36,546 nucleotides of DNA from Methanolinea sp. UBA477. Its GTDB lineage: Archaea; Halobacteriota; Methanomicrobia; Methanomicrobiales; Methanospirillaceae. The position numbers and the translations under genes were made by a program. The stretch covers positions 5,357 through 41,902 of the forward strand of contig DAWO01000072.1 of the NCBI GenBank assembly GCA_002509485.1, given 5' to 3'. Positions 3,701 to 29,777 of this stretch are shown here, piece after piece. The notes below the pieces were generated by a model. That model did not search any database. It worked only from the letters and a program-made list of their open reading frames with translations, and was not told the origin of the DNA. How positions within the stretch are numbered: position 1 is the first letter of the stretch; the number at the start of each line of letters is the position of its first letter.

Positions 3701-3705
3701 CATTT

Positions 3706-14658: not shown

Positions 14659-14792
14659 ACTGCCGGGGATTCTCTGTCAGGTGTGAATGGCGATTTTGCA
14701 CTGATACGGATAGGTTCGACCGGGCTATCTGTTCTTTCTTATTATATCCGGATCCAGGCACGCTCGCTTCCCGGCCGGCATATCCGTCTGTA

Positions 14793-15512
14793 TTACACAA
14801 TCCCAACGAGCGGTCCGTATACGATGACAATATAATACAATCCTATCACGATGAACACTGCCGCAACGACCAGTTTTACCCCCTTCTCCATCTTCTGCAC
14901 CACAGACATCATTCCTGATACCCGGTTTATCCCCTGCACGAGAACGAGGGAGATGATGATAACCGGGAGTGCGGTGGCAATCGCAAAGACGGCGGGAACA
15001 AAGAGTGCATCGCCGGTCTTCAATGCAATGGGAATGAGCATCCCGAAGAAGAGGACCGCAGAGAATGGGCAGAGGGCGAGGGCGAAGACGACCCCGAGCA
15101 GGAATCCCCCGAGATATCCCTTTTCTCCAAGATAGAGCTCGAGTTTCTGCAGCCAGCCGTGCCCCCTGGTACGTGGGATATCGACAATCTCCAGCATCAG
15201 GATTCCCATGACGACCAGGAACGGCCCGATGAGCTTCTCGCCATACTCCTGGAGGAAGAATGAGACGGCCTGGATGTTCAATCCCGCATAGACGATCAGT
15301 GCGGTAAGCCCGATATAGGCAGCCATCCTCCCGAGACTGTAGAGCGATCCGACAAGGAAGGTGTGCCGGCTGTCGCCGATCTTCCTGGAGATGAAGGCGA
15401 TCGCGGTGATGTTTGTCGCAAGGGGGCAGGGAGAGAAGGTCATCAGGAGCCCTATGAAGAACGCGGCGACCAGGGGAATTCCGCTGGTCCCGAGCGCCTC
15501 CATGCCGGCCAT
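14793..15512 (-). CDS. DsbD_2/CcdA-superfamily membrane protein, ArsG-like (putative thiol-relay or arsenical efflux permease)
   Basis: 239 aa with about six TM helices. Membrane-embedded Cys motifs are TFSPCPLATN and ALALCPFSAV. It lies immediately downstream of the ArsF-like gene (8-nt gap). Confidence 0.6.
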   Translation of the reverse strand: MAGMEALGTSGIPLVAAFFIGLLMTFSPCPLATNITAIAFISRKIGDSRHTFLVGSLYSLGRMAAYIGLTALIVYAGLNIQAVSFFLQEYGEKLIGPFLVVMGILMLEIVDIPRTRGHGWLQKLELYLGEKGYLGGFLLGVVFALALCPFSAVLFFGMLIPIALKTGDALFVPAVFAIATALPVIIISLVLVQGINRVSGMMSVVQKMEKGVKLVVAAVFIVIGLYYIVIVYGPLVGIV

Positions 15513-15520
15513 CAGGTCCG

Positions 15521-15991
15521 TCAGGAGAGGTCACCTGCCAGTCGCTTTTCGATGACCTCTCTGAGGTAGGTCATGTATTCGTCCCGGTCATCAAGCCTGT
15601 ACCATACCTTTATATCCTGCTCCTTGTGGAACCCGTCCCCGTCATACACACCGATCCAGATGGATGAGCCGGTTGGCCGGTATTTTTCCACGATCTCCCT
15701 GTTCTCAGGGAGATCGACGTTCACATGGGCAAACACGATCCTTCCGGAAGCCAGTTCGGGAGCAAAGTACGTATTCACCGTCTCTTCAGCATATTCGCCG
15801 AGTATGATGCAGGAGGTACATTGCCGGGTTGCATGAAAGTGGTAGACCTCTACCTTTTCCACTGCGCTGGATACATTATTCGCGGGGTTTTCGCTCTGTT
15901 CAACAGGAGTGGTGCATCCTGTGGCAAGTACCGCGAGTGCAACAACCAGCATGGCGACGGGTATCAGGAAAAATCTTTTATCGGTCTTCAT
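15521..15991 (-). CDS. ArsF-family-like CxxC lipoprotein (thioredoxin-like)
   Basis: 156 aa. Lipobox LATGC, then VEVYHFHATRQCTSC. This resembles proteins NCBI labels as the nitrophenyl-compound nitroreductase subunit ArsF family (from memory). Confidence 0.55.
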   Translation of the reverse strand: MKTDKRFFLIPVAMLVVALAVLATGCTTPVEQSENPANNVSSAVEKVEVYHFHATRQCTSCIILGEYAEETVNTYFAPELASGRIVFAHVNVDLPENREIVEKYRPTGSSIWIGVYDGDGFHKEQDIKVWYRLDDRDEYMTYLREVIEKRLAGDLS

Positions 15992-16376
15992 TGATCACAC
16001 TCCCCTCTCTTATTCCATTCCTGATTGCCTTGATGATGACCTGGCAGAGGCTCTCGATCTCATCGTACCGTGGCTCATCCATCCCGCGTTTGGTGATTCC
16101 TTCCCTTGTTGCGATGATGTATGCATCAGGCACCTTCCCGATCAGGTCCATCCTCTTCTTCGCACAGCATTCCTCGCATCCATCCACTGCGACAAGATAC
16201 TCGTCAGTATCAAGTTCCTTCTCCAGGGCGCGTTTGAGGGCGGTGAGCCGTACATGCCGGGAGACGAGGACCGGGTGCCGGCAATGGAGCGAATGCCCGG
16301 CCAGGGCCGTTAGTTGCCCGGTGTGGGAGATGCCCGAACAGGTCAGGAGGAGGACAGGCAGTTCTTCATCGGTCAT
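15978..16376 (-). CDS. DGC-domain putative zinc-binding protein (possibly ArsE-like)
   Basis: 132 aa. LLTCSGISHTGQL and VAVDGCEECCAKK (DGC motif). The start overlaps the arsC stop (ATGA). Confidence 0.65.
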   Translation of the reverse strand: MTDEELPVLLLTCSGISHTGQLTALAGHSLHCRHPVLVSRHVRLTALKRALEKELDTDEYLVAVDGCEECCAKKRMDLIGKVPDAYIIATREGITKRGMDEPRYDEIESLCQVIIKAIRNGIREGSVINEDR

Positions 16377-16795
16377 CCCGACTCCTCCGTTCCGAAGTAT
16401 TCATCAACCCACCTGGTGATCCTGTCCCGCACATCCCTGAATGTGGGAATAATCAACTCATCGGCCCCTTTCTCTCCCGTTGGATCCGGGAATTCTTTGT
16501 GCAGGGTCTCTTTTGCCCACGGAAAGAACGGGCACGCCGCCCGGGCAGAATCACAGAGCGTGACGGCCAGGTCCATCTCCAGCCCAGCGAACTCTGAAAG
16601 TGATTTCGAGCGTTGACCTGAAATATCAACGCCGATCTCCCGCATTACCTCAATTGCAATCGGATGAATTTGGGAGACCTCTGTCCCTGCCGAGAATGCC
16701 TCGTATCGATCGCCATACCGGGCCCGCAGGTATCCCTCGGCCATCTGTGAGCGTGCGGAGTTATGGGTGCAGATAAACAATACAGTCTTTTTCAT
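16373..16795 (-). CDS. arsC: Arsenate reductase, LMW-PTP family, thioredoxin-coupled type
   Basis: 140 aa. P-loop CTHNSARS near the N-terminus, with a downstream Cys pair in LCDSARAACPFF, as in pI258-type ArsC. Confidence 0.9.
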   Translation of the reverse strand: MKKTVLFICTHNSARSQMAEGYLRARYGDRYEAFSAGTEVSQIHPIAIEVMREIGVDISGQRSKSLSEFAGLEMDLAVTLCDSARAACPFFPWAKETLHKEFPDPTGEKGADELIIPTFRDVRDRITRWVDEYFGTEESG

Positions 16796-16844
16796 CTTTC
16801 GTCACCCATCACTTCACCTGTAATATCGTCTATCAACACAGTGT

Positions 16845-17003
16845 TCATCCTTTCAGTTTCTGATAGAGTGCCGGCAGCCGTTTCCAATACATTTCTTTGA
16901 TGACGGCTTCATCCTCACCGAGCGGGCAGACCGGGATGAGGTCCACGACCTGCTCGGGAGTCAGGGCCAGTTTCCAACTTGTTTTTCTGTCTGTTTTATT
17001 CAT
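16845..17003 (-). CDS. Small hypothetical protein (52 aa from ATG 17003)
   Basis: The ORF runs from 17048. ATG 17003 avoids overlap with the upstream gene. No recognisable motif, one Cys (VCPLGEDE). Confidence 0.35.
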   Translation of the reverse strand: MNKTDRKTSWKLALTPEQVVDLIPVCPLGEDEAVIKEMYWKRLPALYQKLKG

Positions 17004-17010
17004 ATACCCA

Positions 17011-18219
17011 TTAACCTCCCATGAATGTACTGATGAGGAAGACTCCAAGGCCGATCAATATGATCCCCATCACCACACGGACTGCCCTCCGGTTCTCCCG
17101 CCGCCAGCGATCAACCCGCTCAAGTGGGAGGCCCCAGGCAACGGCGGCGAGGATAAGGACCAGCGGAAGGACAAAGAAGACATTATAGATCAGCAGGAGC
17201 GGGATTCCCTGGAAGAGTGTCGTCTGGTCCGAGATCAGGGAGAGGATTGCGAGGTAGATGCCCCCGGTACAGGGCAGCTCGAACATCCCCACAAGCACCC
17301 CGAGAATGAGGGCGGCGGGAACCGATCCCATCTGGATGTAGCGCTCGATGATTCCTTTACGGGAAGCAGGAATCGCCAGGGATTGCTTCTCATCCTTCCG
17401 GAACGCGTCGTGGAAGCTCACCACACCCAGCACGATGGCGATGGCTGCAGCGATGATGCCGATGAACCGGGATATCTCTGCCGACTGGATGACGTAGAAG
17501 AGACCGAGGCCCGAGAAGAAGTAGAAGAGGAACACGGTGGAAATGTAGCAGACGCCCACCGTGAGCATCCTCGTCCGGGAACCCGCAGCAGTCAGGGTGA
17601 ACAGGAGGATGATCAGGACCGAGAAGGCGCAGGGATTGATCCCGTCGACCAGGCCGGCAGTCACTACCAGTGGAAGATTCAGGGACTGCTGCAGGCTGCC
17701 GGTATTCGGGGGTGCCGCTTGTGTGGGTGATGGAATAATTGTGCTCACAGCTCCTCCCCGCTGCGATTGCACTGCTTCGTCAAGCAGGGGTACTATCTCA
17801 TCATACCCGACAAGAGCACGGTCTCCGACAAAGAGTGAGGGCACAGGGATAGGTCCTGTCCCAAAAGCATCCTTGTAGTCATTGAAAAGCTGCCATGCAG
17901 CATTGCTCTCCCGTATATCGAGGAGGTGGCACTCAAGCTCCGGGTGATCCCCCACGAATTGCTGGATGTAGGGGAGTATCTTGAGACAATCCCCACAGTT
18001 GGTATTATAGAAGAATACCAGCACCGGCCCTTCTTCAGTAAACCGGTGATCGGGATGCAACGAAATCGGGGCGGTATTCAAGCCGGGAGGCACGGTTTCC
18101 ATCACGGGGAGATCGGCAGCTGATGCTCCCGGAAATGAGAGGAGGTAGAGGAGCAGGAGCACGAAACCAGATCGAATTGCCTTATTCGAAGAGATCCTGT
18201 GATCGTGTGTAATTGCCAC
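17011..18219 (-). CDS. Fusion of an extracytoplasmic thioredoxin-like domain (CGDC) with a CcdA/DsbD-type transmembrane thiol-disulfide transporter
   Basis: 402 aa. Signal/anchor LLLLYLLSFPGASA, Trx-like FFYNTNCGDCLKILP, then six TM helices with GINPCAFSVL and ELPCTGGIYL. Confidence 0.8.
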   Translation of the reverse strand: MAITHDHRISSNKAIRSGFVLLLLYLLSFPGASAADLPVMETVPPGLNTAPISLHPDHRFTEEGPVLVFFYNTNCGDCLKILPYIQQFVGDHPELECHLLDIRESNAAWQLFNDYKDAFGTGPIPVPSLFVGDRALVGYDEIVPLLDEAVQSQRGGAVSTIIPSPTQAAPPNTGSLQQSLNLPLVVTAGLVDGINPCAFSVLIILLFTLTAAGSRTRMLTVGVCYISTVFLFYFFSGLGLFYVIQSAEISRFIGIIAAAIAIVLGVVSFHDAFRKDEKQSLAIPASRKGIIERYIQMGSVPAALILGVLVGMFELPCTGGIYLAILSLISDQTTLFQGIPLLLIYNVFFVLPLVLILAAVAWGLPLERVDRWRRENRRAVRVVMGIILIGLGVFLISTFMGG

Positions 18220-18582
18220 TAAAAAGCTCCTGAAACTGTGTTAATCGGCCTCGTCCTCTGTCCGCGATGCATAAAGTGAAAGTAATTCAAGTATTATTGA
18301 AATCTTTGTTTATTGAGAATAAATACTTTTTCCGGGGCTTGAAATGGTCACATTGTCCCCCTGTCATCCGGTATCAGGGGCCGATCTCCTGTATACCTGG
18401 TAGAACCCGACGGCCAACCGCCAGGAGAAGGGTTGCAATAATAATTATCGGGAAATATTCTCTCATGAACCCGGCATATTTCATTACGGCCCTTTTCAGG
18501 TTCATGTTACCGTCCACACCAGTCGCGGTTTTCTATTCTCGCACCTATTCTGTTCATGTCTTTCATTGATCATCCACACTCG

Positions 18583-18837
18583 TCACAGCGACGAGCAGGA
18601 GCCCCCGTCCCCTCCCTTCTGCTGTTTCATAAACAGCGAGAGCGCGTCCTTGTCCCGGGAATGCGGGAGTGCCTTCTTGTCCAGGTATTCCATGTGGGTG
18701 ACGGTTGAAGGCAGTTCATCGATGGGGAACCCTACAATTACCTCACCGGGACCGATATCGGTTGCATCCCGGCATCCATAGCACCCGAAGTTGAAGTTGA
18801 GCCGCTGTTCGATGTAGGGAATAATCGTCGCGTCCAC
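18583..18837 (-). CDS. Hypothetical small Cys-containing protein (84 aa)
   Basis: The ORF starts 17 nt after the USP stop, on the same strand. It has GCYGC (CxxC) and a C-terminal GGDGGSCSSL. No family recognised. Confidence 0.45.
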   Translation of the reverse strand: MDATIIPYIEQRLNFNFGCYGCRDATDIGPGEVIVGFPIDELPSTVTHMEYLDKKALPHSRDKDALSLFMKQQKGGDGGSCSSL

Positions 18838-18854
18838 GCGGCTGATTCCCGTTC

Positions 18855-19703
18855 CTACCTCACCACCATCACGTGGGCGCCAGCCCGGTGCACCACCGTC
18901 TCGGTCACGCCTCCCAGGAGGGAACTCACGCTGCTGGTGCGACCCTTCGCCCCCATCACAATAATCGTAGGTTGGAACGAGTCCTCCACTGCCAGGATCT
19001 CATCGATGGCATTGCCGGTCACGAGCTCGGTCACGACCTGCGGAATGGCCAGGCTCTCAAACCTGGCTTTCAGATCCGCGAGCCTTTTCGCGTCTTTCTG
19101 GTTGAATTCCAAGATTTGATCCTGTGAAGTGGTCCAGAGGCGGCGGGTGTCCTGGACGTGCATGATGACCAGTTGATTCGGCTTTGCACCGGCCATCCAT
19201 TCGATGAAGGGGATGCATCGTTGGGCCTCGGCCGAGAGATCCGTGAGATAGAGGATGCGCTGGAAGATACGGGTGTTCAGTGTGCAGGTAGTGGGATCGC
19301 CTTCCTTCATAATTGAGATCCGGAGGATAAGGAGCGGGACCTGTGCCTGGTGAAGGACGTTCTCCGTCTGGCTCCCGAGAAGCATGCGGCTGATGAGGGA
19401 TTTCCCATGGGATCCCATCACGATGAGCGATGGCGGTGCCGCCTCTGCCCGTTCCAGGATTTCAAGCCAGGGGATTCCTTTGGCAACCTCCACGTTCACA
19501 TCGGTCACCCCGCATGCTTCCATCCGGTTCTTCCAGTCATTCAGCATTTTTTGATCGCGGGCAAGGAGACCCGCATCAGTTGCTTCAACATACAAGAGTT
19601 CTACCCGCTTCACACCGAGACGGGCAATCTCCTCGACGGCAGGGACCATCGCCCCTGCAGCGCCATGTAATTCCAGCGGAACTAACATCGAATCTTTCAT
19701 CAT
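18855..19703 (-). CDS. Tandem universal stress protein (2 x UspA domain)
   Basis: 282 aa. Two copies of the USP C-terminal signature: [34 protein letters not shown] and [34 protein letters not shown]. The start overlaps the ACR3 stop. Confidence 0.85.
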
Positions 19704-20779
19704 AATGGTTCACCTTTATACATTCCCTGCGTCCGCAGACAGATCTTCACCAGCATCAGCATCACCGGCACCTCGATCAGGACACCGACGACCGTCGCAA
19801 GCGCCGCGCCCGAGCCCAGCCCGAAGTGGATGGTCGCCGTGGCAATGGCCACCTCGAAGTGGTTCGAGGCCCCGATCATCCCGGCAGGTGCAGCGTCCCG
19901 GTAGGGGAGCTTCAGCCAGCGGGCGAGGACAAAATAGCCGAGAGTGAAGATGAGCACCGTCTGGATGAAGAGGGGGATTGCGATCCAGAGGATGGTCGCC
20001 GGGTTCTCTACGATGACGTTCCCCTTGAAGGTGAAGAGGAGGACGAGCGTTCCGAGCAGCGCGACAATCGAGACCGGGGTGAGCAGGTGCAGAAACCGAC
20101 TCTCGAACCACGCCATCCCCTTTTTAGCGATGATCCACTTCCTGGTAACATACCCTGCAACCAGCGGAAGGGCGACATAGACCGCGACCGAGAGGAGGAT
20201 GGTCTGCCAGGGGATGGGCATGGCGTTCACCCCGAGGAGGAAGCCGCCGAGCGGGGCGTAGAGGACGAGCATCGTGAGGGAGTTGATGGCGACCATGATC
20301 AGGGTGAGACCATCGTTTCCCTTCGCAAGGTAGCTCCACATCAGCACCATGGCGGTGCAGGGCGCGATGCCGAGGAGGATGCACCCCGCGACATAACTCC
20401 TCCAGAGCTCGACCGTGGTCCCGTCAGCAAGCACCTCGGTCCCGGGAATGAGTGACACAAAGACATATCCCAGGAAGAACGTGGCGATGAGGTACATCGT
20501 GAACGGCTTGATAGCCCAGTTGACAAAGAGAGTCATTGCCACCGGTTTGGGGGTGCGGGCTGCTTTCAGCACTTCGGCAAAATCGATCTTCACCATGATG
20601 GGGTACATCATGAAGAAGAGGGCGATCGCGATCGGAATCGAGACCTGGTAGACCGAGAAAGAATCAAGTGCTACGGCAACGCCGGGCGCAATCGCTCCAA
20701 GAGCGATTCCGGCAACGATGCACAGCGCAACCCATACCGTGAGGTATTTCTCAAAGGTACTCAGGCGGCGTTCGGTCAT
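19700..20779 (-). CDS. acr3: ACR3-family arsenite efflux transporter
   Basis: 359 aa with about 10 TM helices. N-terminal [12 protein letters not shown], the conserved Cys in GIAPCTAMV, and NHFEVAIA. Confidence 0.9.
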
Positions 20780-21161
20780 GGTCCCACATCTCTGATGGCA
20801 GCACGCCTGATCAAATCGGCAGGAATTTTCTCATACATCTGGTCTCCGCAGACGAAAGCCCGGCATTCGGTATCATTTTTTGTCATGAATGCGCAGAAGG
20901 GGAAGGATCTCGTTTCGATCCGCACCTCGTCGAAAAGATCACCGAGAGGAATCGGTTGAAGGAGAGGGTGTTGGACTCTCCGATCTTTTCGTGGAAGGGG
21001 ACCATTTCCCTGACCCTGATCCGTATCCTTCGTGCCGAGAATATCGGACGGATCTCCCAAAAGACTTCCTTCAGAGGCCGGACAGTCGATGAACACCGCT
21101 CGCAGGTCGCATCGACGCTCTCTCCGATGTGCCACCATTCAACATTGAGGGCATCTGTCAT
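20776..21161 (-). pseudogene. DUF2703-like ars-associated protein, split by a 1-nt frame offset
   Basis: The N-terminal half is MTDALNVEWWHIGESVDATCERCSS...ESNTLSFN, in the frame of ORF 20883-21305. The C-terminal half is IPLGDLFDEV...[23 protein letters not shown], in the frame of ORF 20776-21138. The junction is at about 20950-20957. Confidence 0.7.
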
Positions 21162-21174
21162 GGTTTCTCGCCGT

Positions 21175-21639
21175 TCAGCAAGAGCCGTCGCAGCCGCAGC
21201 CGCAGCCGCTTCCCGGTTCCGGCGCGGCCTTTTTATTTTTCCCGGCATCCGCCCATCTCCCTGCCCCAGCCCAGCAGGCCGCAACGACCTTCTCGATATC
21301 GTCATCGCTATAGGATTTCGAAGGTCCTTTTACGATCCCGAGCTCAGTCATGACGAGGTGCTGCCCAATGGGGACGCCTTGGGCTTCGGCGATCTTTTTT
21401 GCACAGACCATCGGACATCCGTCAAGGATAACGACTTCATCAACGTTCTTCGCACTGGCGACCAGTCCTTCTGATCCAATCGCGAGCAGGGATGCACCGG
21501 CGATGCTCCCGAATCCTTCCTCTGTTAACTGGAGAGCCGCAAGGTTGGTGATCTGCCCGGTGTTTGCCTGTCCCGCACAGGGAAAGATGATCCGCCTCTT
21601 CTCGTTCTGCCCGCATGTGCAGATGGGAGTGTCGGCCAT
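21175..21639 (-). CDS. DGC-domain putative zinc-binding protein with a Cys-rich C-terminal tail
   Basis: 154 aa. FPCAGQANTGQI and VILDGCPMVCAKK. The tail is GSGCGCGCDGSC. Confidence 0.7.
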   Translation of the reverse strand: MADTPICTCGQNEKRRIIFPCAGQANTGQITNLAALQLTEEGFGSIAGASLLAIGSEGLVASAKNVDEVVILDGCPMVCAKKIAEAQGVPIGQHLVMTELGIVKGPSKSYSDDDIEKVVAACWAGAGRWADAGKNKKAAPEPGSGCGCGCDGSC

Positions 21640-21640
21640 T

Positions 21641-21880
21641 TCAGGTACCTCCGGTAAGAATACGCTTTATTTCGGCAACATCTGCGACCCTGCCCGATAC
21701 CTTGAGTTCCCCGTCGACCATCATCGCAGGGGTGAGCATAATTCCCCGGTCCATGATCGCGGTGATATCTTCTACCTTCTGGATATCCGCACTTATTCCC
21801 AGTTCGGCAACTGCCTTTTCTGTATTCTTCGTCAGTCGTTTGCACTTCATGCATCCGGTTCCGAGAATTTCTATCTTCAT
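21641..21880 (-). CDS. Thioredoxin-fold redox-active disulfide protein 2-like
   Basis: 79 aa. MKIEILGTGCMKCKRL (CxxC) and TPAMMVDGELKVSGR are typical of the small Trx-like partner of DUF318 permeases. Confidence 0.8.
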   Translation of the reverse strand: MKIEILGTGCMKCKRLTKNTEKAVAELGISADIQKVEDITAIMDRGIMLTPAMMVDGELKVSGRVADVAEIKRILTGGT

Positions 21881-22137
21881 GATTTCACCTTTTTTTCATA
21901 TTCCCTGAGCAGGGCGGATCGGTACGCCGCTTCCGCCGCTTTCGGGACATAATTATAGACTTTTACTCGTTTCAGCAGTTCTTCTGCGATCGAATCTTTC
22001 GCGGTGAGACGCAACCCTTGCACTTCATCGATGATATCATCGAGCATCGCGAGCCCTACTCTGATGCCGCCGACATCCACCTGGCGGATGCGGCGCAGCG
22101 CTTCTGCCGCACAGCATGGTTTTTCTTTTCCAGTCAT
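21877..22137 (-). CDS. Hypothetical 86-aa protein with an N-terminal vicinal Cys pair
   Basis: ATG 22137 lies 17 nt after the permease stop, and the stop overlaps the next start (ATGA). The sequence begins MTGKEKPCCAAEAL. The longer track ORF (to 22557) would overlap the permease. Confidence 0.55.
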   Translation of the reverse strand: MTGKEKPCCAAEALRRIRQVDVGGIRVGLAMLDDIIDEVQGLRLTAKDSIAEELLKRVKVYNYVPKAAEAAYRSALLREYEKKVKS

Positions 22138-22154
22138 GTTGTTTATCACCTCTT

Positions 22155-23225
22155 TCAAAGGAACAGTCCATAGGCTGCACCCGCAAAGGCCGAGAAGACG
22201 ATCACAAGCACTGCATAGGTGGCGGTCTTTCTTGCGCCCATAATCCGGTACAGGACGAGGAGGGACGGGAGGCTGACAGTCGGGCCAGCGAGCAGCAGGG
22301 AGAGTGCCGGGCCGCCTGCCATAAAGCCATTCAAATAGCCAAAAGTCGTTCCGATGACCGGCACCTCGAGGAGGGTCGGCATGTAAAGGATTGTGCCGAC
22401 GAGGGAGGCGAGCAGGCAGGAAAGGAAACTGTTCGACCCGAAAAACGGCCGGAATGTCTCCGGAGGCAGGAAATATGCAAGCATCCCCAGGAAGAACGTT
22501 CCCACTACAAGAATAGGAAAGATCTTTTTGGTAAGGTCCCAGGTCTCGTACCCCCACTCTGTGACCTCATCACGCTCGAAGAAGTAGAGCAGGAGATACG
22601 CCGTTCCAAGGGTGAGCGCATAGATGATGGGGAACTTGATCAGCCAGTCTAGTTTCGCCGTACCCGCGAGGAGGATGCCGATGAGAAGAACAAAGAAGAG
22701 GGGGACGATCCAGCGGGGCCGCTCCGCCTTCTCGCCAGCCGGAACTGACGGCATGAGTTTCATCTTCTCTCTTGTCTCGGTATCATACGAGCGGAATAAC
22801 GCAGCCATCAAGAGGCCAATGGCGACAGCCATCACGATGGCAAATACTGCCCTTGCAAGCCCGAGTTCGAACCCGAGCACTTTTGCCGTATAGATGATTG
22901 CGAGGATGTTGATGGCCGGCCCGGCATACAGAAACGTGGTGGCCGGCCCGATCCCGCTCCCACGCTTGAAGAGACCGGCAAACATGGGGAGGATGGTGCA
23001 GGAGCATACCGCCAGCACCGTTCCCGAGATCGAGGCCAGACCATAGGCAATTGACTTTGGCGATTCCGGGCTGAAATATTTCAGGATTGCTTCCTTCTTG
23101 ATGAACGCAGCAATGGCCCCCGCGATGAAGAAGGCCGGTACAAGGCAGGTGAGCACATGCTCTGCAAGGTACTCGGCCAGGGTTTCCCAACCCAGAAGGA
23201 GGGCGCCGATTATCGGATCGGCCAT
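22155..23225 (-). CDS. DUF318 / ArsP-type permease
   Basis: 356 aa, polytopic. The membrane Cys motif is AVCSCTILPMF. It is followed by the Trx-like protein, as is common for this family. Confidence 0.75.
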   Translation of the reverse strand: MADPIIGALLLGWETLAEYLAEHVLTCLVPAFFIAGAIAAFIKKEAILKYFSPESPKSIAYGLASISGTVLAVCSCTILPMFAGLFKRGSGIGPATTFLYAGPAINILAIIYTAKVLGFELGLARAVFAIVMAVAIGLLMAALFRSYDTETREKMKLMPSVPAGEKAERPRWIVPLFFVLLIGILLAGTAKLDWLIKFPIIYALTLGTAYLLLYFFERDEVTEWGYETWDLTKKIFPILVVGTFFLGMLAYFLPPETFRPFFGSNSFLSCLLASLVGTILYMPTLLEVPVIGTTFGYLNGFMAGGPALSLLLAGPTVSLPSLLVLYRIMGARKTATYAVLVIVFSAFAGAAYGLFL

Positions 23226-24086
23226 CAGAACACCCCACCTGACCTTGAATGGTGCATGTGCATCCCCCTGCTGACAGAAAACCGTGAATCTCTTTCCGTG
23301 AGATCGCGGGATTGGATAATTGCGGGGATGGCACTCTTCGAACGACGCGTCAATTGAGGTTTCATACCAAATCTGCTCATTTGTTGTATCGCATTAACAG
23401 CCGTGACAGAACATGACGACCACTGATTCCTCCTTTTTTACCCTGATTTTATCAGTTGTTTCAAATCTACTTGAAATAAGTACTGCGGTGTACATAATCA
23501 AGATTGCGGAAGTGACAAAATCTGGCTGTTATGAGATCCACAGACAAACTTCTTCAATTTGGCTGAAAGACGTATCTTCAGGCTCAAGGGCGGAGACAAA
23601 CCCATCTTTTGATCCCTGCCACCAATACTGAAGCCGGGCTTTTTTAGATCCTGGATCCGGCAGATGGATCTTCATGCTGTTTTCAACCGCCTTTTTCGCC
23701 ACATTAACAAAGATCCAGCCGGTCCCTCAAAAACGGGGAGAGAGAGGATTCAGGAACCGTACCCACTTCTTCCTGACATCCGCATATGTGTCTCCGATAA
23801 AGGGATAGAAGGTGCTCCTTCTGCTTCGAAACGCAATCATCGCAGAGGAACACATTCCCATACCTCTCATGATTGACCCGGATAAACCGTGTGCCGGGCT
23901 TTCCGCATAGACCACACTGCATGCTCATTCTTCTTTGGTAAAATCCTCGATCTAATCTACTCGTCTCATCCTGTCATTTTTATCAGGTTCAAATATGCCT
24001 TACTCCAATTAGTCACAACTCCCAGTGAAATTGGTACAATCCATTGAATCGTATTTCATACTGTGTGAGCCCCCATATTCCACCAT

Positions 24087-24842
24087 TCATTCGACTGTGA
24101 CCGCTTCTCCTCCAATATATCCATAGAAGAACGCTGCAACGACCGCACCGACTATTGGACCGATAACGTAGATCGGGAAGTACACCCAGAGGTCCGGTCC
24201 GCCGAGCAACGAATCTATCAGGTAAGGACCGAAAGTACGGGCTGTATTCAGGGATGAGCCGGTGAGGTTGCCGATGGTGGTGATCACTCCTCCCACCGTC
24301 AGACCGATAACAAGCCCGGCAAACCCCTGTGGCGCTTTTTTATCCACCGCAACACCCATTATAACCATCATCAGGACAAAGGTGCCGATAGCTTCCGCGA
24401 GGATAGCCTGACCGTAACCTATCCCCGGGAATGGGGCAGTTGCGCCGAGTCCGCCCACCGTGACCGCGTCCATGCCGGCACTTGCGGCAAAGAGCAGGCT
24501 ACCGAGTGCACCTCCTATCAGCTGGGCAACAATGTAGGCGCCGGTCTCTCCGGGGGGAAACCTCTTGGTGGCCCAGAGCGCGATGGTCACTGCAGGGTTG
24601 ATATGGGCACCCGAGACCCTGCCCATGGAATAGATGACTGCAGCGATCACAATGGCGAACGCCATCCCGATGGCGAACCAGTCACCGAGCCCTCCCAGGG
24701 CGCCGATCCCACTATTGAATGGCGTGCCGGTATCAGTCCCTCGTGCAATCATAAGCGTGATGGCTGCGGCACCTGCCCCGAAATACACGAGGAGCGCAGT
24801 CCCGGTAAGTTCTGCAATGCAACGCTTTGCGAGATCGCTCAT
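24087..24842 (-). CDS. MIP-family channel (aquaporin/aquaglyceroporin-like) with NPA and NTA motifs
   Basis: 251 aa with six TM helices. SGAHINPAVT is the first NPA. The second motif reads SSLNTARTFGP, encoded by AAT ACA GCC on the minus strand at 24248-24240. Confidence 0.85.
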   Translation of the reverse strand: MSDLAKRCIAELTGTALLVYFGAGAAAITLMIARGTDTGTPFNSGIGALGGLGDWFAIGMAFAIVIAAVIYSMGRVSGAHINPAVTIALWATKRFPPGETGAYIVAQLIGGALGSLLFAASAGMDAVTVGGLGATAPFPGIGYGQAILAEAIGTFVLMMVIMGVAVDKKAPQGFAGLVIGLTVGGVITTIGNLTGSSLNTARTFGPYLIDSLLGGPDLWVYFPIYVIGPIVGAVVAAFFYGYIGGEAVTVE

Positions 24843-24846
24843 CGTC

Positions 24847-25056
24847 TCACTTCCCCTTTAGCGCATGGTAGCACTCGGGACAGAGTATCCGCGGGATCTT
24901 TGCCTTCACCCTCCGGGCCGGGAAGGGATAGCCCCCTTCCCACATATCGAGCTCTTCGCGCATGGCATGTTCGGTACAGAGCCCCATGCCGCAGATGATG
25001 CCGACCGCAACGGCATCCGGGGAACGCCCTTCCTTCGCACAAACATAACATTTCAT
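24847..25056 (-). CDS. Small Cys-ribbon protein, DUF2180-like
   Basis: 69 aa. MKCYVC, CGMGLC and CPEC give three Cys pairs. It lies 4 nt upstream of the MIP gene. The family name is from memory. Confidence 0.55.
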   Translation of the reverse strand: MKCYVCAKEGRSPDAVAVGIICGMGLCTEHAMREELDMWEGGYPFPARRVKAKIPRILCPECYHALKGK

Positions 25057-25081
25057 GGCTTTTCACCTGAATTTTGACAGT

Positions 25082-26581
25082 TCATACCGCTTCCTTCCAC
25101 TGGCAATAACAGTGCCGGAAGTCCATCAGCGCTGCCGATGCACAGTCCTTGCAGATCCTGGCCGGGGCCGCTGCGACCTCCTTGTGCAGGGCAATGATAT
25201 TGGTCATCAGGGTCGCGGTGACCGGCTCGCTCGTCAGGAGACACGGGTAGTCGGCGAGACGGAGCATCGCAGATGCACGGACCGTGATAGCGCAGGCAGG
25301 GTAGGCATACCGCTGTGGGTTCATCAGCACCTCGTTCTCGTGGATCGGCGAGAGGTCAATCTCGAACCCGGCAACTTTCGGTTTCAGCATGCCGTCCTGG
25401 CCATTCTGTCCTCTCCGTGCCTTGTCTACATACTTCCAGCCCCGGTAGATCATGTCCATGAAGTCGCAGTTATGCAGCTCGGCTGCCGCCCCTCTCCGCG
25501 GGTAGAGCTGGACATAGTTATGCCACCTCTTGGTGAGGAGGTCCACCACCATGATGGCGTTGAACCCGTCCAGCTCAAGCAGATATTCGGCAGCGCATGC
25601 CGACGCCCCGGTAGCGAGTGAAAGGATATCGTACTCGTTCTTGAACTTCGGCACCGCCTTTGTCAGGTTCCGGTCCATCACTTCGGTTGCGGCCTCGATG
25701 GTCGCCATGATGACGTCATCCTTGCACATGTTGAATGTGGACTGAGCGATATGGTGTGCGATGTCTCCGACACAGTAGGCGGGGATGGTGACGATATTCC
25801 CGTAATGGATATCATCATCGATCGCTGCCCTGACTGTGGACTCCATCTTCTTCCGGTATCCGGCCATGTACTTCCTGCAGTCGAACGAGGTCATGCCAGC
25901 ATCGTCCATCAGCCGAGCCTGGGTCTCGACCGGCTCATCATAGATCGCCTGGAGCGTCGTTATCTCGGCCTTCACCGCATCGGCAAGAGTGGCGCCCTTT
26001 TCGGTCTCATGGGCAAACACCTCGCCTATACCGTAGGACGTGTTCATTCCCCACGACTTCGAGGCAAGGATCGCCTGTTTATGCGCTACGGGGATATCCA
26101 CGGTCTTAAGGATCTGGTTGACCACGTTGCTGGTGCTCCCGGGGATGAGCGCAAAGTCCACCACACAGGTCGGGCCATAGAATCCCGCATACCGGCGAGC
26201 AGATTCCCGGCCGATCAGCGCCTCGGACTTTCCGATCGCTTTCACAAATGCATCGACGCTCTTTCTGAACGCATGATCCTGGTCATACAGGATCTCCAGG
26301 ACAACCGGTGTCTGGTAGTGCTCTACGAAGGGATCGTCCTCAGGCCTTACGGTCTTTGTCAGCCCTTCGAGGACGTCGAAATGGGCTTCGACCGAACTGG
26401 TATGAAGATCGAAGACCGCCTTGGACTGGTCCCCGACTGGCTTCATCTTGTTCACGGCATCAAGGTACACCCTGGCATCGTCGACGACGAATGGCTGTCC
26501 CCGTTTCTTCTTTATGGCCCCTACGTCTGCCCTCTGGGCAGCCATCGCTTCGTCAATCATCTTTTTATAGAGTTCTTTCAT
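25082..26581 (-). CDS. Large uncharacterised archaeal protein, DUF2193-like
   Basis: 499-aa intact ORF with no catalytic family I can name. C-terminal Cys cluster is CKDCASAALMDFRHCYC. The family name is from memory. Confidence 0.5.
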   Translation of the reverse strand: MKELYKKMIDEAMAAQRADVGAIKKKRGQPFVVDDARVYLDAVNKMKPVGDQSKAVFDLHTSSVEAHFDVLEGLTKTVRPEDDPFVEHYQTPVVLEILYDQDHAFRKSVDAFVKAIGKSEALIGRESARRYAGFYGPTCVVDFALIPGSTSNVVNQILKTVDIPVAHKQAILASKSWGMNTSYGIGEVFAHETEKGATLADAVKAEITTLQAIYDEPVETQARLMDDAGMTSFDCRKYMAGYRKKMESTVRAAIDDDIHYGNIVTIPAYCVGDIAHHIAQSTFNMCKDDVIMATIEAATEVMDRNLTKAVPKFKNEYDILSLATGASACAAEYLLELDGFNAIMVVDLLTKRWHNYVQLYPRRGAAAELHNCDFMDMIYRGWKYVDKARRGQNGQDGMLKPKVAGFEIDLSPIHENEVLMNPQRYAYPACAITVRASAMLRLADYPCLLTSEPVTATLMTNIIALHKEVAAAPARICKDCASAALMDFRHCYCQWKEAV

Positions 26582-26677
26582 TTGATTTCACCTTCGAAAC
26601 ACCACCCTGGAGAGTTTTCCTTGTTCGGAGAGGTGTTAATTGTCCAATACCTTCCCCATGATATATCAATGTTGTTC

Positions 26678-26685
26678 AAAAAAAA
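26678..26685 (-). terminator. T8 tract (minus strand) downstream of the FTR-like gene
   Basis: A plus-strand A8 run sits 110 nt after the FTR-like stop and upstream of the TGATATATCA element. Confidence 0.4.
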
Positions 26686-26795
26686 GTTGAATTGGATTTT
26701 CTACCGGCTTACCCTTCAGAAGTCATACGTAGTTTATCATCCAGGGGATGAAGAAAGGGGGATACATTTTTTAGTTCCATGCCCTGTTTTGCTTT

Positions 26796-27122
26796 TCACG
26801 GACCTGGCCCGAAGAAGAGATTGCAGTGGCAGTGACCGTCTTTGATGACCTCGTCCTGGTGATAGATACAGGGACAGATGATATCCTGACCTTTTTCCGG
26901 GTCACCGCTCCGAATCCGGCACGGACAGTACGGTTTTCCGAATCTCTTGCAGTTCCGGACAAGACCCCGAATAACCAGATCCAGGACACGGGAATCGGGG
27001 TTGAGTTCCCAGCCATGGTCCTCCGCATATCCTGCAGTTGCTCGGTGTATCGCCTCTTCAAGCTTCCCGGAATCTGTATCGGGATCACAGGGTACGTGAA
27101 ATGATTTCACCGTTGGCATCAT
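26796..27122 (-). CDS. Ferredoxin:thioredoxin reductase catalytic-subunit-like protein
   Basis: 108 aa carrying the CPC...CPC...CHC signature (YCPCRIRSG, IICPCIYHQ, GHCHCNLF). GGAG lies 6 nt upstream of the ATG. Confidence 0.85.
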   Translation of the reverse strand: MMPTVKSFHVPCDPDTDSGKLEEAIHRATAGYAEDHGWELNPDSRVLDLVIRGLVRNCKRFGKPYCPCRIRSGDPEKGQDIICPCIYHQDEVIKDGHCHCNLFFGPGP

Positions 27123-27175
27123 CCATTCTCCGGGTAAAACTGTTTATAGGAAAAGATATTTTATATTTGTTTGAA
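27123..27175. promoter_or_regulatory. 53-bp divergent promoter region with two TATA-like elements
   Basis: TTTATA at 27143-27148 lies about 30 nt before the arsR ATG at 27176, which implies a leaderless or very short leader. ATTTTATATTT at 27158-27168, read on the minus strand, lies about 40 nt before the FTR-like ATG. Confidence 0.4.
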
Positions 27176-27580
27176 ATGTCCAATCAACAGCCACGCTCCC
27201 GGATGGTGCTTAAAGATGTGGGGGATCTCTCAATTCCGAAGGAGATCGCAGACTCTATCTGTTCATGCGGGGGCGTCGAGGGCCTGATCGAGAGTCTCCC
27301 GCCCGATGATTCCATAGAGCGTATGCAGAGGTGGTACCAGGCCTGTGCAGATCCCGTCCGTCTGAAGATCCTCTCCCTGCTCATGGTCCGGCCGCTCTGT
27401 GTCTGCGTGATCAAGGCGGTGCTTCAGATGGCCGACTCAAAGCTCTCGTACCACTTGAACATCCTGAAGAAGGCCGGGATGATCAAAGGGGAGCAGCAGG
27501 GCTATTATATCATATATAATCTCACAGACCAGGCGCGGATGTTTCTCGAGAGGGAGAGAGAACGTTTTTCATCCAGCTGA
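27176..27580 (+). CDS. arsR: ArsR/SmtB-family metalloregulator with a CVC motif
   Basis: The start is placed at ATG 27176 (134 aa). ADPVRLKILSLL, PLCVCVI, SKLSYHLNILKKAGMI and an extra N-terminal CSC. Confidence 0.85.
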   Translation: MSNQQPRSRMVLKDVGDLSIPKEIADSICSCGGVEGLIESLPPDDSIERMQRWYQACADPVRLKILSLLMVRPLCVCVIKAVLQMADSKLSYHLNILKKAGMIKGEQQGYYIIYNLTDQARMFLERERERFSSS

Positions 27581-27624
27581 CCAGTGCCGCAAAAGAGTAT
27601 GATTTCCAGGCCCCGACGTGTTGA

Positions 27625-28023
27625 TCAGGTATTTTTTGCCATCCGTGCAATCTCTTCAGGCTGCAGTCCTGCACATCGATCATCGGTTGCCACGGATGCC
27701 ATCAGATCTTCATCAGCCTCGAGGACGGAGGTGAGATCCCGGACGAATGCACGGAGGGGGGGGTTATCCGGAAGAGCTTTGCTGTAATACATCCATTGAC
27801 CCTCCCGGCGGGCATTCACAAGACCTGCATGGCGGAGCACGGTCAGATGACGCGAGACCTTTGTCTGGGACATCCCGAGGGCGACCTGTATCTGGCAGAC
27901 GCAGATCTCGCCCTTTCCCAGCAGAAGATAGATTCGGAGCCGTGTCTCATCCGAGAGGGCCTTAAAAATTGTCGTATAGGTGTGAAGACCCGGGGCATCT
28001 GTTCGTTCCGTGCGGTCTTTCAT
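27625..28023 (-). CDS. arsR: ArsR/SmtB-family metalloregulator with a CVC motif and an extended C-terminus
   Basis: 132 aa. LSDETRLRIYLLL, EICVCQI and TKVSRHLTVLRHAGLV. It lies 40 nt downstream of the permease gene on the same strand. Confidence 0.85.
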   Translation of the reverse strand: MKDRTERTDAPGLHTYTTIFKALSDETRLRIYLLLGKGEICVCQIQVALGMSQTKVSRHLTVLRHAGLVNARREGQWMYYSKALPDNPPLRAFVRDLTSVLEADEDLMASVATDDRCAGLQPEEIARMAKNT

Positions 28024-28063
28024 ATTTCAATCTCACCGTATGGAGGGATATACCCTGGGATGT

Positions 28064-29263
28064 TCATGCAATAATCCCTGAAACCTGGATAAGCTGGAAC
28101 GCGACTCCGGTGATAACTGCGACTCCCAGGATTGTGATGACGAACGCCGCGACCAGCCTTCGCTCGAAGATAGAGGCAAGCAGGGTAACTTCGGGTATGC
28201 TTGCTCCCGCACCTCCAATAATAAGGGCCATGATCGCACCGATTCCCATCCCCTTTGCAAGGAGCACGGCGCTGATGGGGATGATCGTCTCTGCCCTGAT
28301 GTACATAGGAATGCCGATGACAGCGGCAACCGGGATAGCGAGGGGATTATCGGGGCCGGCAATACCGACAATCAGGTCTTCGGGAACAAACCCATAGATA
28401 AAGGCCCCTATTGCGGCTCCCAGGATAAGGTAGGGCAGAACCTGCCGGAAAAGCGACAGGGCAAACCTGGAGGCGGACCGGAACCTGGTGCGATGGATCG
28501 AGGTATCCGAACCCTCCCGGGATTCGGGTGGGCCCTCGGGATTGGGGACCGTTTCAGAGCCGCACGAACACCCGCCTGTGACCAGTTTCAATCCGGTTGA
28601 GGTGATCTCCGAACTGCTGGCAACTGTTGAAGGGGATGTATTTTCGGAGCAACAGGTGGCTGGTGAAGGCGACGTGTCTTCGCAACAACCGGAACTGACC
28701 GGTGGGGGTGAAGGCGTCTCCTGACAGCAGGTGACCGGTGCGACTGGCACCGGACTGGAGGCGCATGAACATCCGATAGATGATTCTGCAGCGGCTGAAT
28801 GGTTTTGCCTGCCCGCTATAACCGGTTTCACAAAACGCAGGTAATTTCGGCGTTCAAGGGAAAGTCCGGCGAGGACTGCGATACAGAATGTCATGACGCA
28901 GTACATGAGAGTCAGTGACGGGCCGAGGAAGGCAAGGATCAGGAAGACGATGACCGGGTTTAGGAGGGGTGATGCGAAGAGAAAAGCCATGCACGCCCCA
29001 AAAGGCACCTTTGAGTTGATCAGGCCGACGAGGAGAGGAATCGTGGAGCAGGAACAGAATGGGGTGAGCGCCCCGAAGAAGGCACCCATCGCTGTCCCGG
29101 TAACCCGATGCCTGGTGGAGAGCGTTCGCCTGATCTTCTCTTCAGGAACGTATTCCTGGATAAGACCCACAAAAAAACTGACTGCGATAAAGAGAAGGAC
29201 CAACTCTGCGGTGATGATAAGAAAAAATTCGCCTGCAGTGAAGAGATCGTTGATAGCTGTCAT
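28064..29263 (-). CDS. DUF318 / ArsP-type permease with a Cys-pair-rich central loop
   Basis: 399 aa. The TPFCSCSTIPL motif sits in an early TM helix. A hydrophilic loop of about 110 aa carries CSC, 3 x CC and CSC. Confidence 0.75.
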   Translation of the reverse strand: MTAINDLFTAGEFFLIITAELVLLFIAVSFFVGLIQEYVPEEKIRRTLSTRHRVTGTAMGAFFGALTPFCSCSTIPLLVGLINSKVPFGACMAFLFASPLLNPVIVFLILAFLGPSLTLMYCVMTFCIAVLAGLSLERRNYLRFVKPVIAGRQNHSAAAESSIGCSCASSPVPVAPVTCCQETPSPPPVSSGCCEDTSPSPATCCSENTSPSTVASSSEITSTGLKLVTGGCSCGSETVPNPEGPPESREGSDTSIHRTRFRSASRFALSLFRQVLPYLILGAAIGAFIYGFVPEDLIVGIAGPDNPLAIPVAAVIGIPMYIRAETIIPISAVLLAKGMGIGAIMALIIGGAGASIPEVTLLASIFERRLVAAFVITILGVAVITGVAFQLIQVSGIIA

Positions 29264-29727: not shown

Positions 29728-29777
29728 TCCCAACTTTTTTACAATTGTGTATTCATTACTTCTCGTGAAGTGTCCCC

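Follow-up and report, generated by a model that had tools for sequence, protein, structure and literature searches.

Do the arsenic-resistance genes and the cysteine-rich proteins encoded side by side in a methanogen genome belong to one system and, if so, to what kind of system? The question is raised by a 14.5-kb interval (positions 14793-29263) within a 36,546-nucleotide stretch of Methanolinea sp. UBA477 (contig DAWO01000072.1, positions 5,357 to 41,902 of the forward strand); the whole stretch, about 36.5 kb, was analyzed and is called the window below. An earlier note, made from the letters and open reading frames (ORFs) alone, had described this interval as a composite island of metalloid detoxification combined with an unusually dense set of thiol and disulfide genes. 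By assigning gene identities from an ORF map and from Pfam and NCBIfam profile scans, and by comparing homologous loci (labeled L001-L060), we arrive at a related but different answer: the locus is probably an arsenic resistance regulon controlled by the regulator ArsR2 and fed by ferredoxin and thioredoxin, of mosaic origin, equipped with a transmembrane thiol relay and partly decayed here. Methanogens inhabit places where arsenic gets reduced, thiolated and methylated, and they contain no glutathione; to our knowledge, their handling of arsenic has been poorly described. The locus offers a testable regulon, with an operator that is conserved, a candidate for its regulator and three promoters as targets, as well as a plausible ferredoxin-based electron supply for arsenate reduction.

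The shared palindrome and its presumed regulator

The palindromes discussed in this section lie at the following window positions (nt, nucleotides).

18286-18301: operator copy 1, ATTTCAA-TAATAC-TTGAATT, about 70 nt upstream of the gene for a thioredoxin-CcdA fusion (Trx-CcdA)
23460-23475: operator copy 2, ATTTCAA-GTAGAT-TTGAAAC, upstream of the unit that begins with the permease gene for ArsP1
26675-26691: operator copy 3, TTCAA-N7-TTGAA, about 100 nt upstream of the DUF2193 gene
29280-29291: palindrome TTGAATATTCGA in the promoter of the second permease gene, for ArsP2; a candidate operator of the regulator ArsR1, distinct from the main operator

The pattern TTCAA-N6/7-TTGAA has three matches in the window against 0.2 expected, and none of 100 shuffles reached three. 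All three matches fall in promoters of cluster units, and none is found elsewhere in the window. As the window had itself been the source of the pattern, the palindrome was then tested on 48 independent loci. These were found by a genome scan with ArsP1, homologs of which were identified in 48 archaeal genomes at 54-87% identity, the best (82-87%) in metagenome-assembled genomes (MAGs) of Methanolinea and Methanoregulaceae and others in Methanocalculus, Methanoculleus, Thermoplasmata and Methanomassiliicoccales. The form with a 6-nt spacer (N6) occurs at most 300 nt upstream of the ArsP homolog in 40 of the 45 loci with upstream sequence, a set spanning Methanomicrobiales, Thermoplasmata and Methanomassiliicoccales. 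The 13.3 kb of upstream sequence hold 57 matches, or 4.3 per kb, compared with 14 matches, or 0.022 per kb, in the other 628 kb, an enrichment of about 190-fold. In an alignment of 13 ArsP1 upstream regions, ATTTCAA-N6-TTGAAAT is the sole conserved block.

The other two promoters give a similar picture. The same palindrome is the sole conserved block in an alignment of the regions upstream of DUF2193 in five loci, with an orthologous N6 element at equal distance from DUF2193 in L009, L013, L014 and L026, and the palindrome is also found upstream of the Trx-CcdA gene in L023. Where DUF2193 cassettes are linked to ars genes, the palindrome precedes DUF2193 in all five, whereas it does so in none of six stand-alone cassettes (Methanothrix, Methanoregula, Methanosarcinales and three others). 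Through this comparison, the enigmatic DUF2193 cassette of methanogens, which includes a channel of the major intrinsic protein (MIP) family, is for the first time connected with an arsenic-type regulator.

ArsR2 is the obvious binder of this element because its gene is divergent to the operator-bearing promoter and because its recognition helix and PLCVC site are invariant. The divergent arrangement with the ArsP promoter is kept in most related loci, and the motifs PLCVCVIK and ADSKLSYHL, the latter in the recognition helix, do not vary across about 30 orthologs. On this evidence ArsR2 is presumed to bind ATTTCAA-N6-TTGAAAT and to respond to arsenite, and the palindrome would define the probable regulon of an ArsR2-type regulator. 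In Thermoplasmata, Methanocalculus and two Methanomicrobiales MAGs (L018 and L028), the palindrome is usually doubled, with the copies about 50-62 nt and mostly 52 nt apart; the loci concerned, in which the doubled element lies upstream of the ArsP homolog, are L018, L019, L025, L028, L030-L034 and L039-L051. A spacing of 52 nt equals roughly five helical turns, which suggests cooperative binding.

Further copies of the palindrome, reading TTCAAGATTTGTTGAA or TTCAAGAATTGTTGAA, were seen downstream of ArsG or ArsC in L007 (at 10535), L023 (9842) and L029 (9847). These copies adjoin ORFs for small secreted proteins, which may be added members of the regulon that are absent from the window. The palindrome TTGAATATTCGA in the ArsP2 promoter is not enriched by itself in the window. 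A block TATATTTGAATATYCGATTATA has been kept upstream of a 66%-identical ArsP2 in L023 (about 4200-4235) and is a possible ArsR1 site; TTGAATATTCGA is kept as a lead only, because it is conserved in L023 despite having no significance in the window. Between operator copy 2 and ArsP1, a mini-ORF encoding MFCHGC behind a strong Shine-Dalgarno sequence was considered as a leader peptide and rejected, as it is not conserved in 12 relatives.

Gene content, conserved core and decayed genes

The genes and gene remnants of the interval are listed below from left to right (aa, amino acids).

14793-15512, minus strand: ArsG-family membrane protein, DsbD_2/CcdA-like (NF040495, 261 bits against a cut-off of 200; PF13386, 1.9e-16)
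15521-15991, minus strand: ArsF-family protein (NF040494, 106 bits against a cut-off of 60) with the lipobox LATGC and a CxxC motif
15978-16376, minus strand: DGC2, the second DGC-domain protein (PF08859, 64 bits)
16373-16795, minus strand: ArsC of the thioredoxin-coupled, low-molecular-weight protein tyrosine phosphatase (LMW-PTP) type (B. subtilis ArsC 1jl3, E 7e-25)
16845-17003, minus strand: 52-aa ORF with one homolog only (L022, 56%)
17011-18219, minus strand: Trx-CcdA fusion (PF02683, DsbD_TM) with a signal peptide and a predicted extracytoplasmic thioredoxin domain (CGDC)
18374-18505, minus strand: N-terminal relic, about 30 residues, of a second SBF/ACR3-like transporter (tblastn)
18583-18837, minus strand: DUF169 relic, an 84-aa ORF covering only Pfam profile positions 163-207 of 209
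18855-19703, minus strand: tandem universal stress protein (USP; 2 x Usp, 282 aa; PF00582 in two stretches), overlapping ACR3 by 4 nt
19700-20779, minus strand: ACR3 arsenite efflux transporter (TIGR00832 equivalog, 386 bits against a cut-off of 283)
20776-21161, minus strand: DUF2703 pseudogene, with a frameshift near 20955-20964 and its cysteines lost
21175-21639, minus strand: DGC1, a DGC-domain protein with a CGCGCxGxC tail (PF08859, 107 bits)
21641-21880, minus strand: Trx3, a 79-aa thioredoxin of the MTH895/ArsE family with CMKC (PF13192; TIGR00412, 104 bits against 62)
21877-22137, minus strand: CC86, an 86-aa CC protein with the near-invariant N-terminal KPCCAAEALRRIR and no Pfam or NCBIfam match
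22155-23225, minus strand: ArsP1, an ArsP_1-family permease (PF03773, 233 bits) and first gene of the conserved core
23529-23928, minus strand: two small, doubtful ORFs, 74 aa (with 7 Cys) and 57 aa long, in the stretch from AqpM to operator copy 2
24087-24842, minus strand: AqpM-type MIP channel (AqpM structure 3ne2, E 1e-108)
24847-25056, minus strand: DUF2180, a small Cys-rich protein (PF09947, 120 bits)
25082-26581, minus strand: DUF2193 protein (PF09959, 914 bits) with the C-terminal CX2C..C motif of a [4Fe-4S] site
26796-27122, minus strand: FTR-B-like protein, a 108-aa single-domain ferredoxin:disulfide reductase (PF02943, 78 bits)
27203-27580, plus strand: ArsR2, a 125-aa ArsR/SmtB regulator, called in identical contigs (NF033788, 69 bits)
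27625-28023, minus strand: ArsR1, an ArsR/SmtB repressor downstream of ArsP2 (HTH_5 and NF033788, 98.9 bits)
28064-29263, minus strand: ArsP2, an ArsP_1-family permease (PF03773, 211 bits)

The inventory and coordinates of the earlier note were reproduced by the ORF map and profile scans, down to the gaps and 4-nt overlaps between genes, as was the near-uniform orientation of about 20 genes on the minus strand with one, the second ArsR, on the plus strand. Conserved CxxC, CC or CxC motifs were found in most products, in line with the Cys-rich character proposed for the set, and no ORF of the interval matches ArsA, ArsD or ArsM, which had likewise been reported as missing. What had been described as a string of nine genes is indeed a co-oriented string, but it holds eight ORFs, since the two USP stretches are a single 282-aa gene, and so comprises six intact genes and two relics. 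The description of the accessory two-thirds as uncharacterized no longer applies, as much of it falls in named families (ArsE, ArsF, ArsG, ArsP, FTR-like, AqpM and DUF2193). The members without known function are the two DGC proteins, the CC protein, DUF2180, USP and the 52-aa ORF. The two small ORFs at 23529-23928 have no family match and no homolog in any non-identical locus and may not be real genes. Rfam and tandem-repeat scans of the interval returned nothing.

Mapping all window proteins onto the 48 loci separates a widely conserved core from modules that come and go. The core consists of divergent ArsR2, ArsP1, the CC protein (in Methanomicrobiales only), Trx3, DGC and sometimes DUF2703; the optional modules are ACR3-USP-(DUF169), DGC2-ArsF-ArsG, TrxCcdA-ArsC, (FTR-B)-DUF2193-DUF2180-MIP and ArsP2-ArsR1. 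A comparison with related methanogens, which the earlier note had proposed as a check, thus supports conservation for this small core, while the variable remainder means that the cluster is not an operon of the core genome. The ACR3-USP pair recurs in L008, L009, L013-15, L021 and L026, and DGC2 in relatives always stands upstream of ArsF-ArsG or after ArsC. Regarding the core proteins of unassigned role, the CC86 family comprises about 294 clusters, all annotated as hypothetical, unnamed and restricted to Methanomicrobiales; its AlphaFold2 model is confident (predicted local distance difference test score, pLDDT, 87) and had no fold match in the PDB (best E 0.58). Species of Methanofollis and Methanoculleus are among those that carry the operon with the CC protein. 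The AlphaFold2 model of DGC1 shows a generic flavodoxin-like alpha/beta fold whose best match is lumazine synthase (E 3e-3, TM 0.35), and assigning a function to DGC1 from its fold was rejected because only such generic matches were obtained. Sequence searches of the PDB with DGC1 and with intact DUF2703 found nothing.

The recruited cassette was previously described in looser terms: the "Cys-ribbon" gene is now identified as DUF2180, and the MIP gene encodes an AqpM ortholog. DUF2193 is a [4Fe-4S] protein, and a MIP or porin gene adjoins 91% of its methanogen homologs (PMC12375889). The order DUF2193-DUF2180-MIP is adjacent in the window and in 10 further loci, with DUF2180 always between the other two. 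The second NPA box of the window AqpM (residues 199-201) reads NTA, as it does in L009, L013, L014, L026 and L058-L060, whereas Methanothrix, Methanoregula (L056), Methanosarcinales and the solved AqpM structures have NPA. The NTA variant was considered as a mark of channels captured by ars clusters and was rejected, as three stand-alone cassettes (L058-L060) with neither operator nor ars genes share it; being present with and without ars linkage, it is a trait of a Methanoregulaceae-type clade. The neighboring FTR-B-like protein aligns with 7pwe (FTR-B) and 4tpu (the ferredoxin:disulfide reductase of M. acetivorans), with all six cysteines of its CPC..CPC..CHC pattern conserved. No partner subunit and no fused variable-chain, rubredoxin or flavin domain was recognized in the window.

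Three of the listed features are remnants, two of which had been taken for genes. The "DUF2703-like" gene turned out to be a frameshifted pseudogene, with Pfam profile positions 1-67 in one frame and 71-120 in another; the CPSCAC (CxxCxC) cysteines of the family have been lost and the window copy reads FPFCAF, while L008, L011 and L017 carry the gene intact in a single frame. The 84-aa ORF preserves only the C-terminal end of a DUF169 protein whose gene has otherwise been deleted; it is 86% identical to residues 186-269 of a 269-aa protein in L009, where the full gene follows USP. In the 363-nt "gap" upstream of Trx-CcdA, positions 18416-18496 encode residues 4-30 of a 344-aa SBF/ACR3-like protein whose gene follows DUF169 in L009 (63% identity, E 1e-5, tblastn). 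DUF169 and the second SBF transporter are therefore represented in the window by side-by-side deletion relics, both genes being intact in L009 (14140-16112). The window has counterparts in six contigs of independent metagenomic origin, which match it at 99.9-100% identity over as much as 20 kb and contain all three relics, so these sequence-level oddities are real and not assembly errors. A mutation of ArsP2 in the metagenome contig L001, where a gene caller had split the gene, was considered and rejected because the protein is identical and intact there.

Elsewhere in the window, positions 3619-11976 encode a giant surface-type protein of 2785 aa with 21 PKD domains, DUF7948 and beta-propeller repeats, its gene containing a 243/486-bp tandem array at 5906-9354. 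An ORF at 35945-36391 matches only positions 71-152 of the 155-position DEDD transposase domain of the IS110 family.

Proposed mechanism and rival readings

In the mechanism that we propose, As(III) or Sb(III) would bind the CVC site of ArsR2, and ArsR2 would leave the three operators. The units released would be ArsP1 through ACR3-USP, Trx-CcdA-ArsC-DGC-ArsF-ArsG and DUF2193-DUF2180-AqpM, while ArsP2-ArsR1 would be driven from a separate promoter element. Arsenate would be reduced by the thioredoxin-type ArsC with electrons passed from ferredoxin to the FTR-B-like protein, to the small thioredoxin and on to ArsC, and As(III) would exit via ACR3 and, down its gradient, via AqpM. Trivalent methylarsenicals, as products of a methanogen side reaction, would exit via the ArsP-type permeases. 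ArsG and Trx-CcdA would pass reducing equivalents outward to the lipoprotein ArsF and to the fusion's own N-terminal domain, a relay that would maintain cell-surface thiols in the reduced state or carry out the extracellular reduction of arsenicals. The thiophilic substrate would probably be bound or shuttled by the DGC and CC proteins.

The arsenic assignment starts from a canonical core of arsR, acr3 and arsC that proved real on closer analysis, with two CVC-type ArsR proteins, ACR3 and a thioredoxin-type ArsC. Both regulators score above the NF033788 cut-off and have the CVC site in helix alpha-3, at residues 41-43 in ArsR1. ArsC keeps all three catalytic cysteines in the alignment with 1jl3, namely Cys9 of the CX5R motif, Cys81 and Cys88. 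The two permeases also have, in an early transmembrane helix, the vicinal cysteines of ArsP, as a CSC motif at residues 74-76 in ArsP1 and 70-72 in ArsP2, which we take to be the functional motif of C. jejuni ArsP. Consequently, the claim of a composite metalloid-resistance locus holds, given the ACR3 equivalog, the ArsC cysteines, the CVC-type ArsRs and conservation limited to the core; that of a classical island does not. ArsP is known as an exporter of methylarsenite, MAs(III), and trivalent roxarsone, Rox(III) (PMC6205960), and methanogens methylate arsenic in a side reaction via methylcobalamin and coenzyme M chemistry (PMC6205960), which would explain ArsP-type permeases in a cluster that has no arsM.

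Several observations weigh against an arsenic regulon of this form. Operator copy 3 has the N7 spacer and weaker half-sites, and the FTR-B-like gene is without a full operator of its own. The ArsC score is below the TIGR02691 cut-off (119 against 174 bits), which leaves its equivalog status unproven by score. ArsP1 and ArsP2 are far below any NCBIfam equivalog cut-off and matched no arsenic-specific equivalog. The ArsG protein, compared on its own with a solved CcdA (5vkv), gives an insignificant E of 4.4. DGC1 has Gly48 in place of a Cys that is near-invariant in about 20 aligned homologs and counts among four presumed metal ligands; with the DUF2703 pseudogene next to it, this loss hints that selection on some of the core operon may have been relaxed. 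The conserved core, moreover, often occurs without ACR3 or ArsC.

The last point leads to the main rival, according to which the core of ArsR2, ArsP-type permease, thioredoxin and DGC is an exporter for soft metals or for thiol or sulfane stress (Cd, Zn, Cu or reactive sulfur), joined by ACR3 and ArsC in some lineages. Core and operator are found without ACR3 or ArsC in L010, L011, L017-19, L027-29 and many Thermoplasmata. The nearest NCBIfam families of the permeases, below cut-off, are the SO_0444 Cu/Zn exporter and SaoE; ArsP2 is nearest to SO_0444, and its loop at residues of about 160-240 is a stretch of some 80 residues rich in Ser, Pro and Cys, with CSC, three CC pairs and another CSC, of a poly-Cys kind typical of metal binding. 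CVC sites are not specific to arsenic and also sense Cd, Pb and Zn in CadC-type relatives of the ArsR/SmtB family. Yet the identifiable neighbors of this core are ars genes in archaea and Bacteroidota alike, the same operator also precedes the ArsC unit in the window, and the ArsE, ArsF and ArsG assignments pass curated cut-offs. We therefore consider a soft-metal or thiol-stress role rather unlikely, and retain the arsenic regulon as the preferred reading.

Within that arsenic regulon, the outward thiol relay is proposed from the predicted topology of three proteins. ArsF shows weak similarity to thioredoxin (2lst, E 0.003) and has no flavin or nitroreductase domain, and its lipobox is conserved in six orthologs although the hydrophobic core varies. 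An exhaustive search returned 2434 representatives of the ArsF family; among the best 150, the CxxC is present in 138 and a lipobox in 51, while 129 carry a hydrophobic N-terminal segment that precedes the CxxC, and the ArsF proteins of Bacteroidota likewise have signal peptides. These features suggest that ArsF is extracytoplasmic across the family. In ArsG, two cysteines, in SPCP and LCPF, are conserved among orthologs, and its CcdA-like assignment rests on the Pfam match to DsbD_2, given the result with 5vkv. Residues 58-139 of the Trx-CcdA fusion align with thioredoxins, its CGDC with their CGPC, and its membrane cysteines lie in NPCAF and LPCTG; signal peptides are also present in its orthologs. 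Because these features are the anatomy of CcdA/DsbD-ResA relays, they suggest that ArsF and ArsG, together with Trx-CcdA, may move reducing equivalents outward.

A second alternative assigns a different chemistry to the same genes, with Trx3 (as ArsE) and ArsF forming a reductase of nitro-aromatic arsenicals such as roxarsone and nitarsone and ArsG acting as an efflux permease for the amino product, without any transmembrane relay. Chen, Zhang and Rosen (2019) reportedly assigned such roles to ArsEFG of Shewanella putrefaciens, naming ArsE/F a nitroreductase and ArsG an efflux permease, which also counts against the relay proposed here, and the NCBIfam ArsE, ArsF and ArsG families are said to be named after that work; Trx3, ArsF and ArsG all score above the corresponding cut-offs. 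However, a cytoplasmic reductase role is doubtful for a protein predicted to be extracytoplasmic, being secreted or lipid-anchored in the window, in the six orthologs and in those 129 representatives, and carrying a thioredoxin-like CxxC rather than a flavin. Moreover, ArsG keeps its two relay cysteines in a DsbD_2/CcdA-like protein, the thioredoxin gene belongs to a different transcription unit 5 kb from arsFG, and synthetic nitro-aromatic arsenicals would be an improbable source of long-term selection on methanogens. A nitroreductase-efflux system is hence clearly unlikely here, and the propagated names "nitroreductase subunit" and "efflux permease" may in fact describe a CcdA-type thiol relay.

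As for the origin of the regulon, the cluster occupies a site flanked by genes for a deoC-like aldolase and a DUF2115 protein. In Methanolinea sp. SDB (L027, a 6.1-kb contig), the same flanks are separated by 3.9 kb against 13.6 kb in the window, which has 9.7 kb extra. The flanks are collinear at 87-93% identity and the central core is only 68-70% identical; L027 matches window positions 14509-16377 at 87%, 27148-27568 at 89% and 29423-30310 at 90%, whereas the blocks 16378-21255, 23151-27147 and 27569-29422 are absent from it. In L058, the flanking deoC and ADH genes (88% and 80% identical) lie 2.5 kb from a DUF2193-DUF2180-MIP cassette without ars genes. A 72-aa ORF next to deoC (29509-29727, plus strand) is conserved with deoC in L058 and L001-L003, which puts the right-hand limit of the variable region somewhere from 29263 to 29509. 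Based on this module-wise synteny, the collinear SDB flanks with extra blocks in the window and the L058 cassette without ars genes, we read the locus as a mosaic built up through accretion and recombination at a conserved position in the chromosome, rather than as an operon of the core genome or a classical island. That the whole 14.5 kb is a recently acquired mobile island moved as one piece is very improbable: content does vary sharply among close relatives with modules shuffled, a homologous Prevotella gene set does lie beside an integrase and a relaxase, and the IS110 fragment, the only mobile-element trace in the window, is 6.7 kb from the right border of the cluster, but a search for the signs of a classical island found a flat guanine-plus-cytosine content (0.52-0.58, like the flanks), with neither a tRNA in the window nor an integrase gene in the flanks and with no border repeats, the cluster ends (ArsG-ArsF-DGC2 and ArsR2) are 87-90% identical to those of SDB with only internal blocks differing, the DUF2193 cassette looks native to the deoC neighborhood, and the pattern fits stepwise accretion and recombination rather than a single insertion.

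A broader proposal can be put forward only tentatively. An archaea-wide ArsR2/ATTTCAA-N6-TTGAAAT regulon of an ArsP-type permease and a small thioredoxin might have been extended in the Methanolinea lineage to three promoters, with the AqpM-DUF2180-DUF2193 cassette recruited; ArsF/ArsG and Trx-CcdA would then form the outward arm of a relay running from ferredoxin through the FTR-like protein, thioredoxin and a CcdA-type protein to an extracytoplasmic acceptor, acting on arsenicals (for example, thioarsenates) or on thiols damaged by arsenic. If true, this would provide the first functional context for DGC, the CC protein, DUF2180 and DUF2193.

Comparison with known systems

Two loci in Bacteroidota were reached through a tblastn search of plasmids that used ArsG as the query. 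The Prevotella nigrescens F0103 plasmid NZ_CP072340.1 carries, on a mobile element, the order winged helix-turn-helix regulator-ArsF-ArsG-thioredoxin-permease-ArsC-ACR3 beside the integrase and relaxase mentioned above, and pFA1 of Fulvitalea axinellae (NZ_AP025315.1) carries ArsR-thioredoxin-ArsF-ArsG-permease. Between them, the two sets draw on the same families as the window (Trx3 40-47%, ArsG 39-41%, ArsF 27-33%, ArsC 34% and ACR3 50% identical, with an ArsP-type permease). Because these proteins are homologous to those of the window, the dense combination of thiol and ars genes is a recurrent one, and the trx-arsF-arsG-permease-arsC-acr3 set, already annotated in Bacteroidota plasmids, removes the ground for calling it unusual. 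Each Bacteroidota set differs in being one compact operon with a bacterial ArsR and without the archaeal palindrome, and in lacking the DGC, CC86, FTR-like, DUF2193/DUF2180/AqpM, USP and Trx-CcdA genes.

By NCBIfam cut-offs, the window has homologs of all three proteins of the ArsEFG system of Shewanella putrefaciens 200. The arsE-type gene (21641-21880) and arsF-arsG (14793-15991) lie in separate units, unlike in Fulvitalea and Prevotella, where the ArsE/F/G-type genes are contiguous. A further difference is that ArsF of the window is predicted to be extracytoplasmic and a thiol relay is proposed, in place of nitro-group reduction and efflux. With the canonical arsR-acr3-arsC operons of the B. 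subtilis skin element and S. aureus pI258 type, the locus shares a CVC-type ArsR, ACR3 and an LMW-PTP ArsC with a triad of the Cys10/82/89 type. It departs from them in that ACR3 and ArsC belong to different units under copies of one operator, in having two regulators and in its proposed electron source, which would be ferredoxin via the FTR-like protein and not NADPH thioredoxin reductase.

The CcdA/DsbD-ResA relays have in common with the window a two-Cys (PC-type) membrane protein, an extracytoplasmic CxxC partner of thioredoxin fold and a cytoplasmic thioredoxin. Two such pairs are encoded here, ArsG with ArsF and the Trx-CcdA fusion, and in contrast to the known relays they lie within an ars regulon with no cytochrome c maturation genes nearby. 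For the channel, the closest parallel is the Sinorhizobium meliloti operon arsR-aqpS-arsC-arsH, in which AqpS is an arsenite exit channel (PMC6205960); as in the window, a MIP channel is placed under an ars-type regulator together with an arsenate reductase system. The window differs in that its channel is an AqpM ortholog from a pan-methanogen cassette normally unrelated to ars, and in that ACR3 is also present. The DUF2193 (Mvol_0354)-MIP pair of Methanococcus voltae represents the same family and adjacency, with DUF2180 in between here; the cassettes of the window and four relatives, unlike those of six other genomes, are located inside an ars cluster with the ArsR2-type palindrome.

Taken together, the locus is not a new kind of system, since Bacteroidota have the gene set as well and some of it is in decay here. 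What is new is the operator conserved across phyla, the regulatory recruitment of the DUF2193-AqpM cassette and the argument from ArsF/ArsG topology. Particular to the archaeal version, when set against the known systems, are the ArsR2 regulon over three promoters, the DGC and CC proteins, the FTR-like protein, Trx-CcdA and the recruited AqpM cassette.

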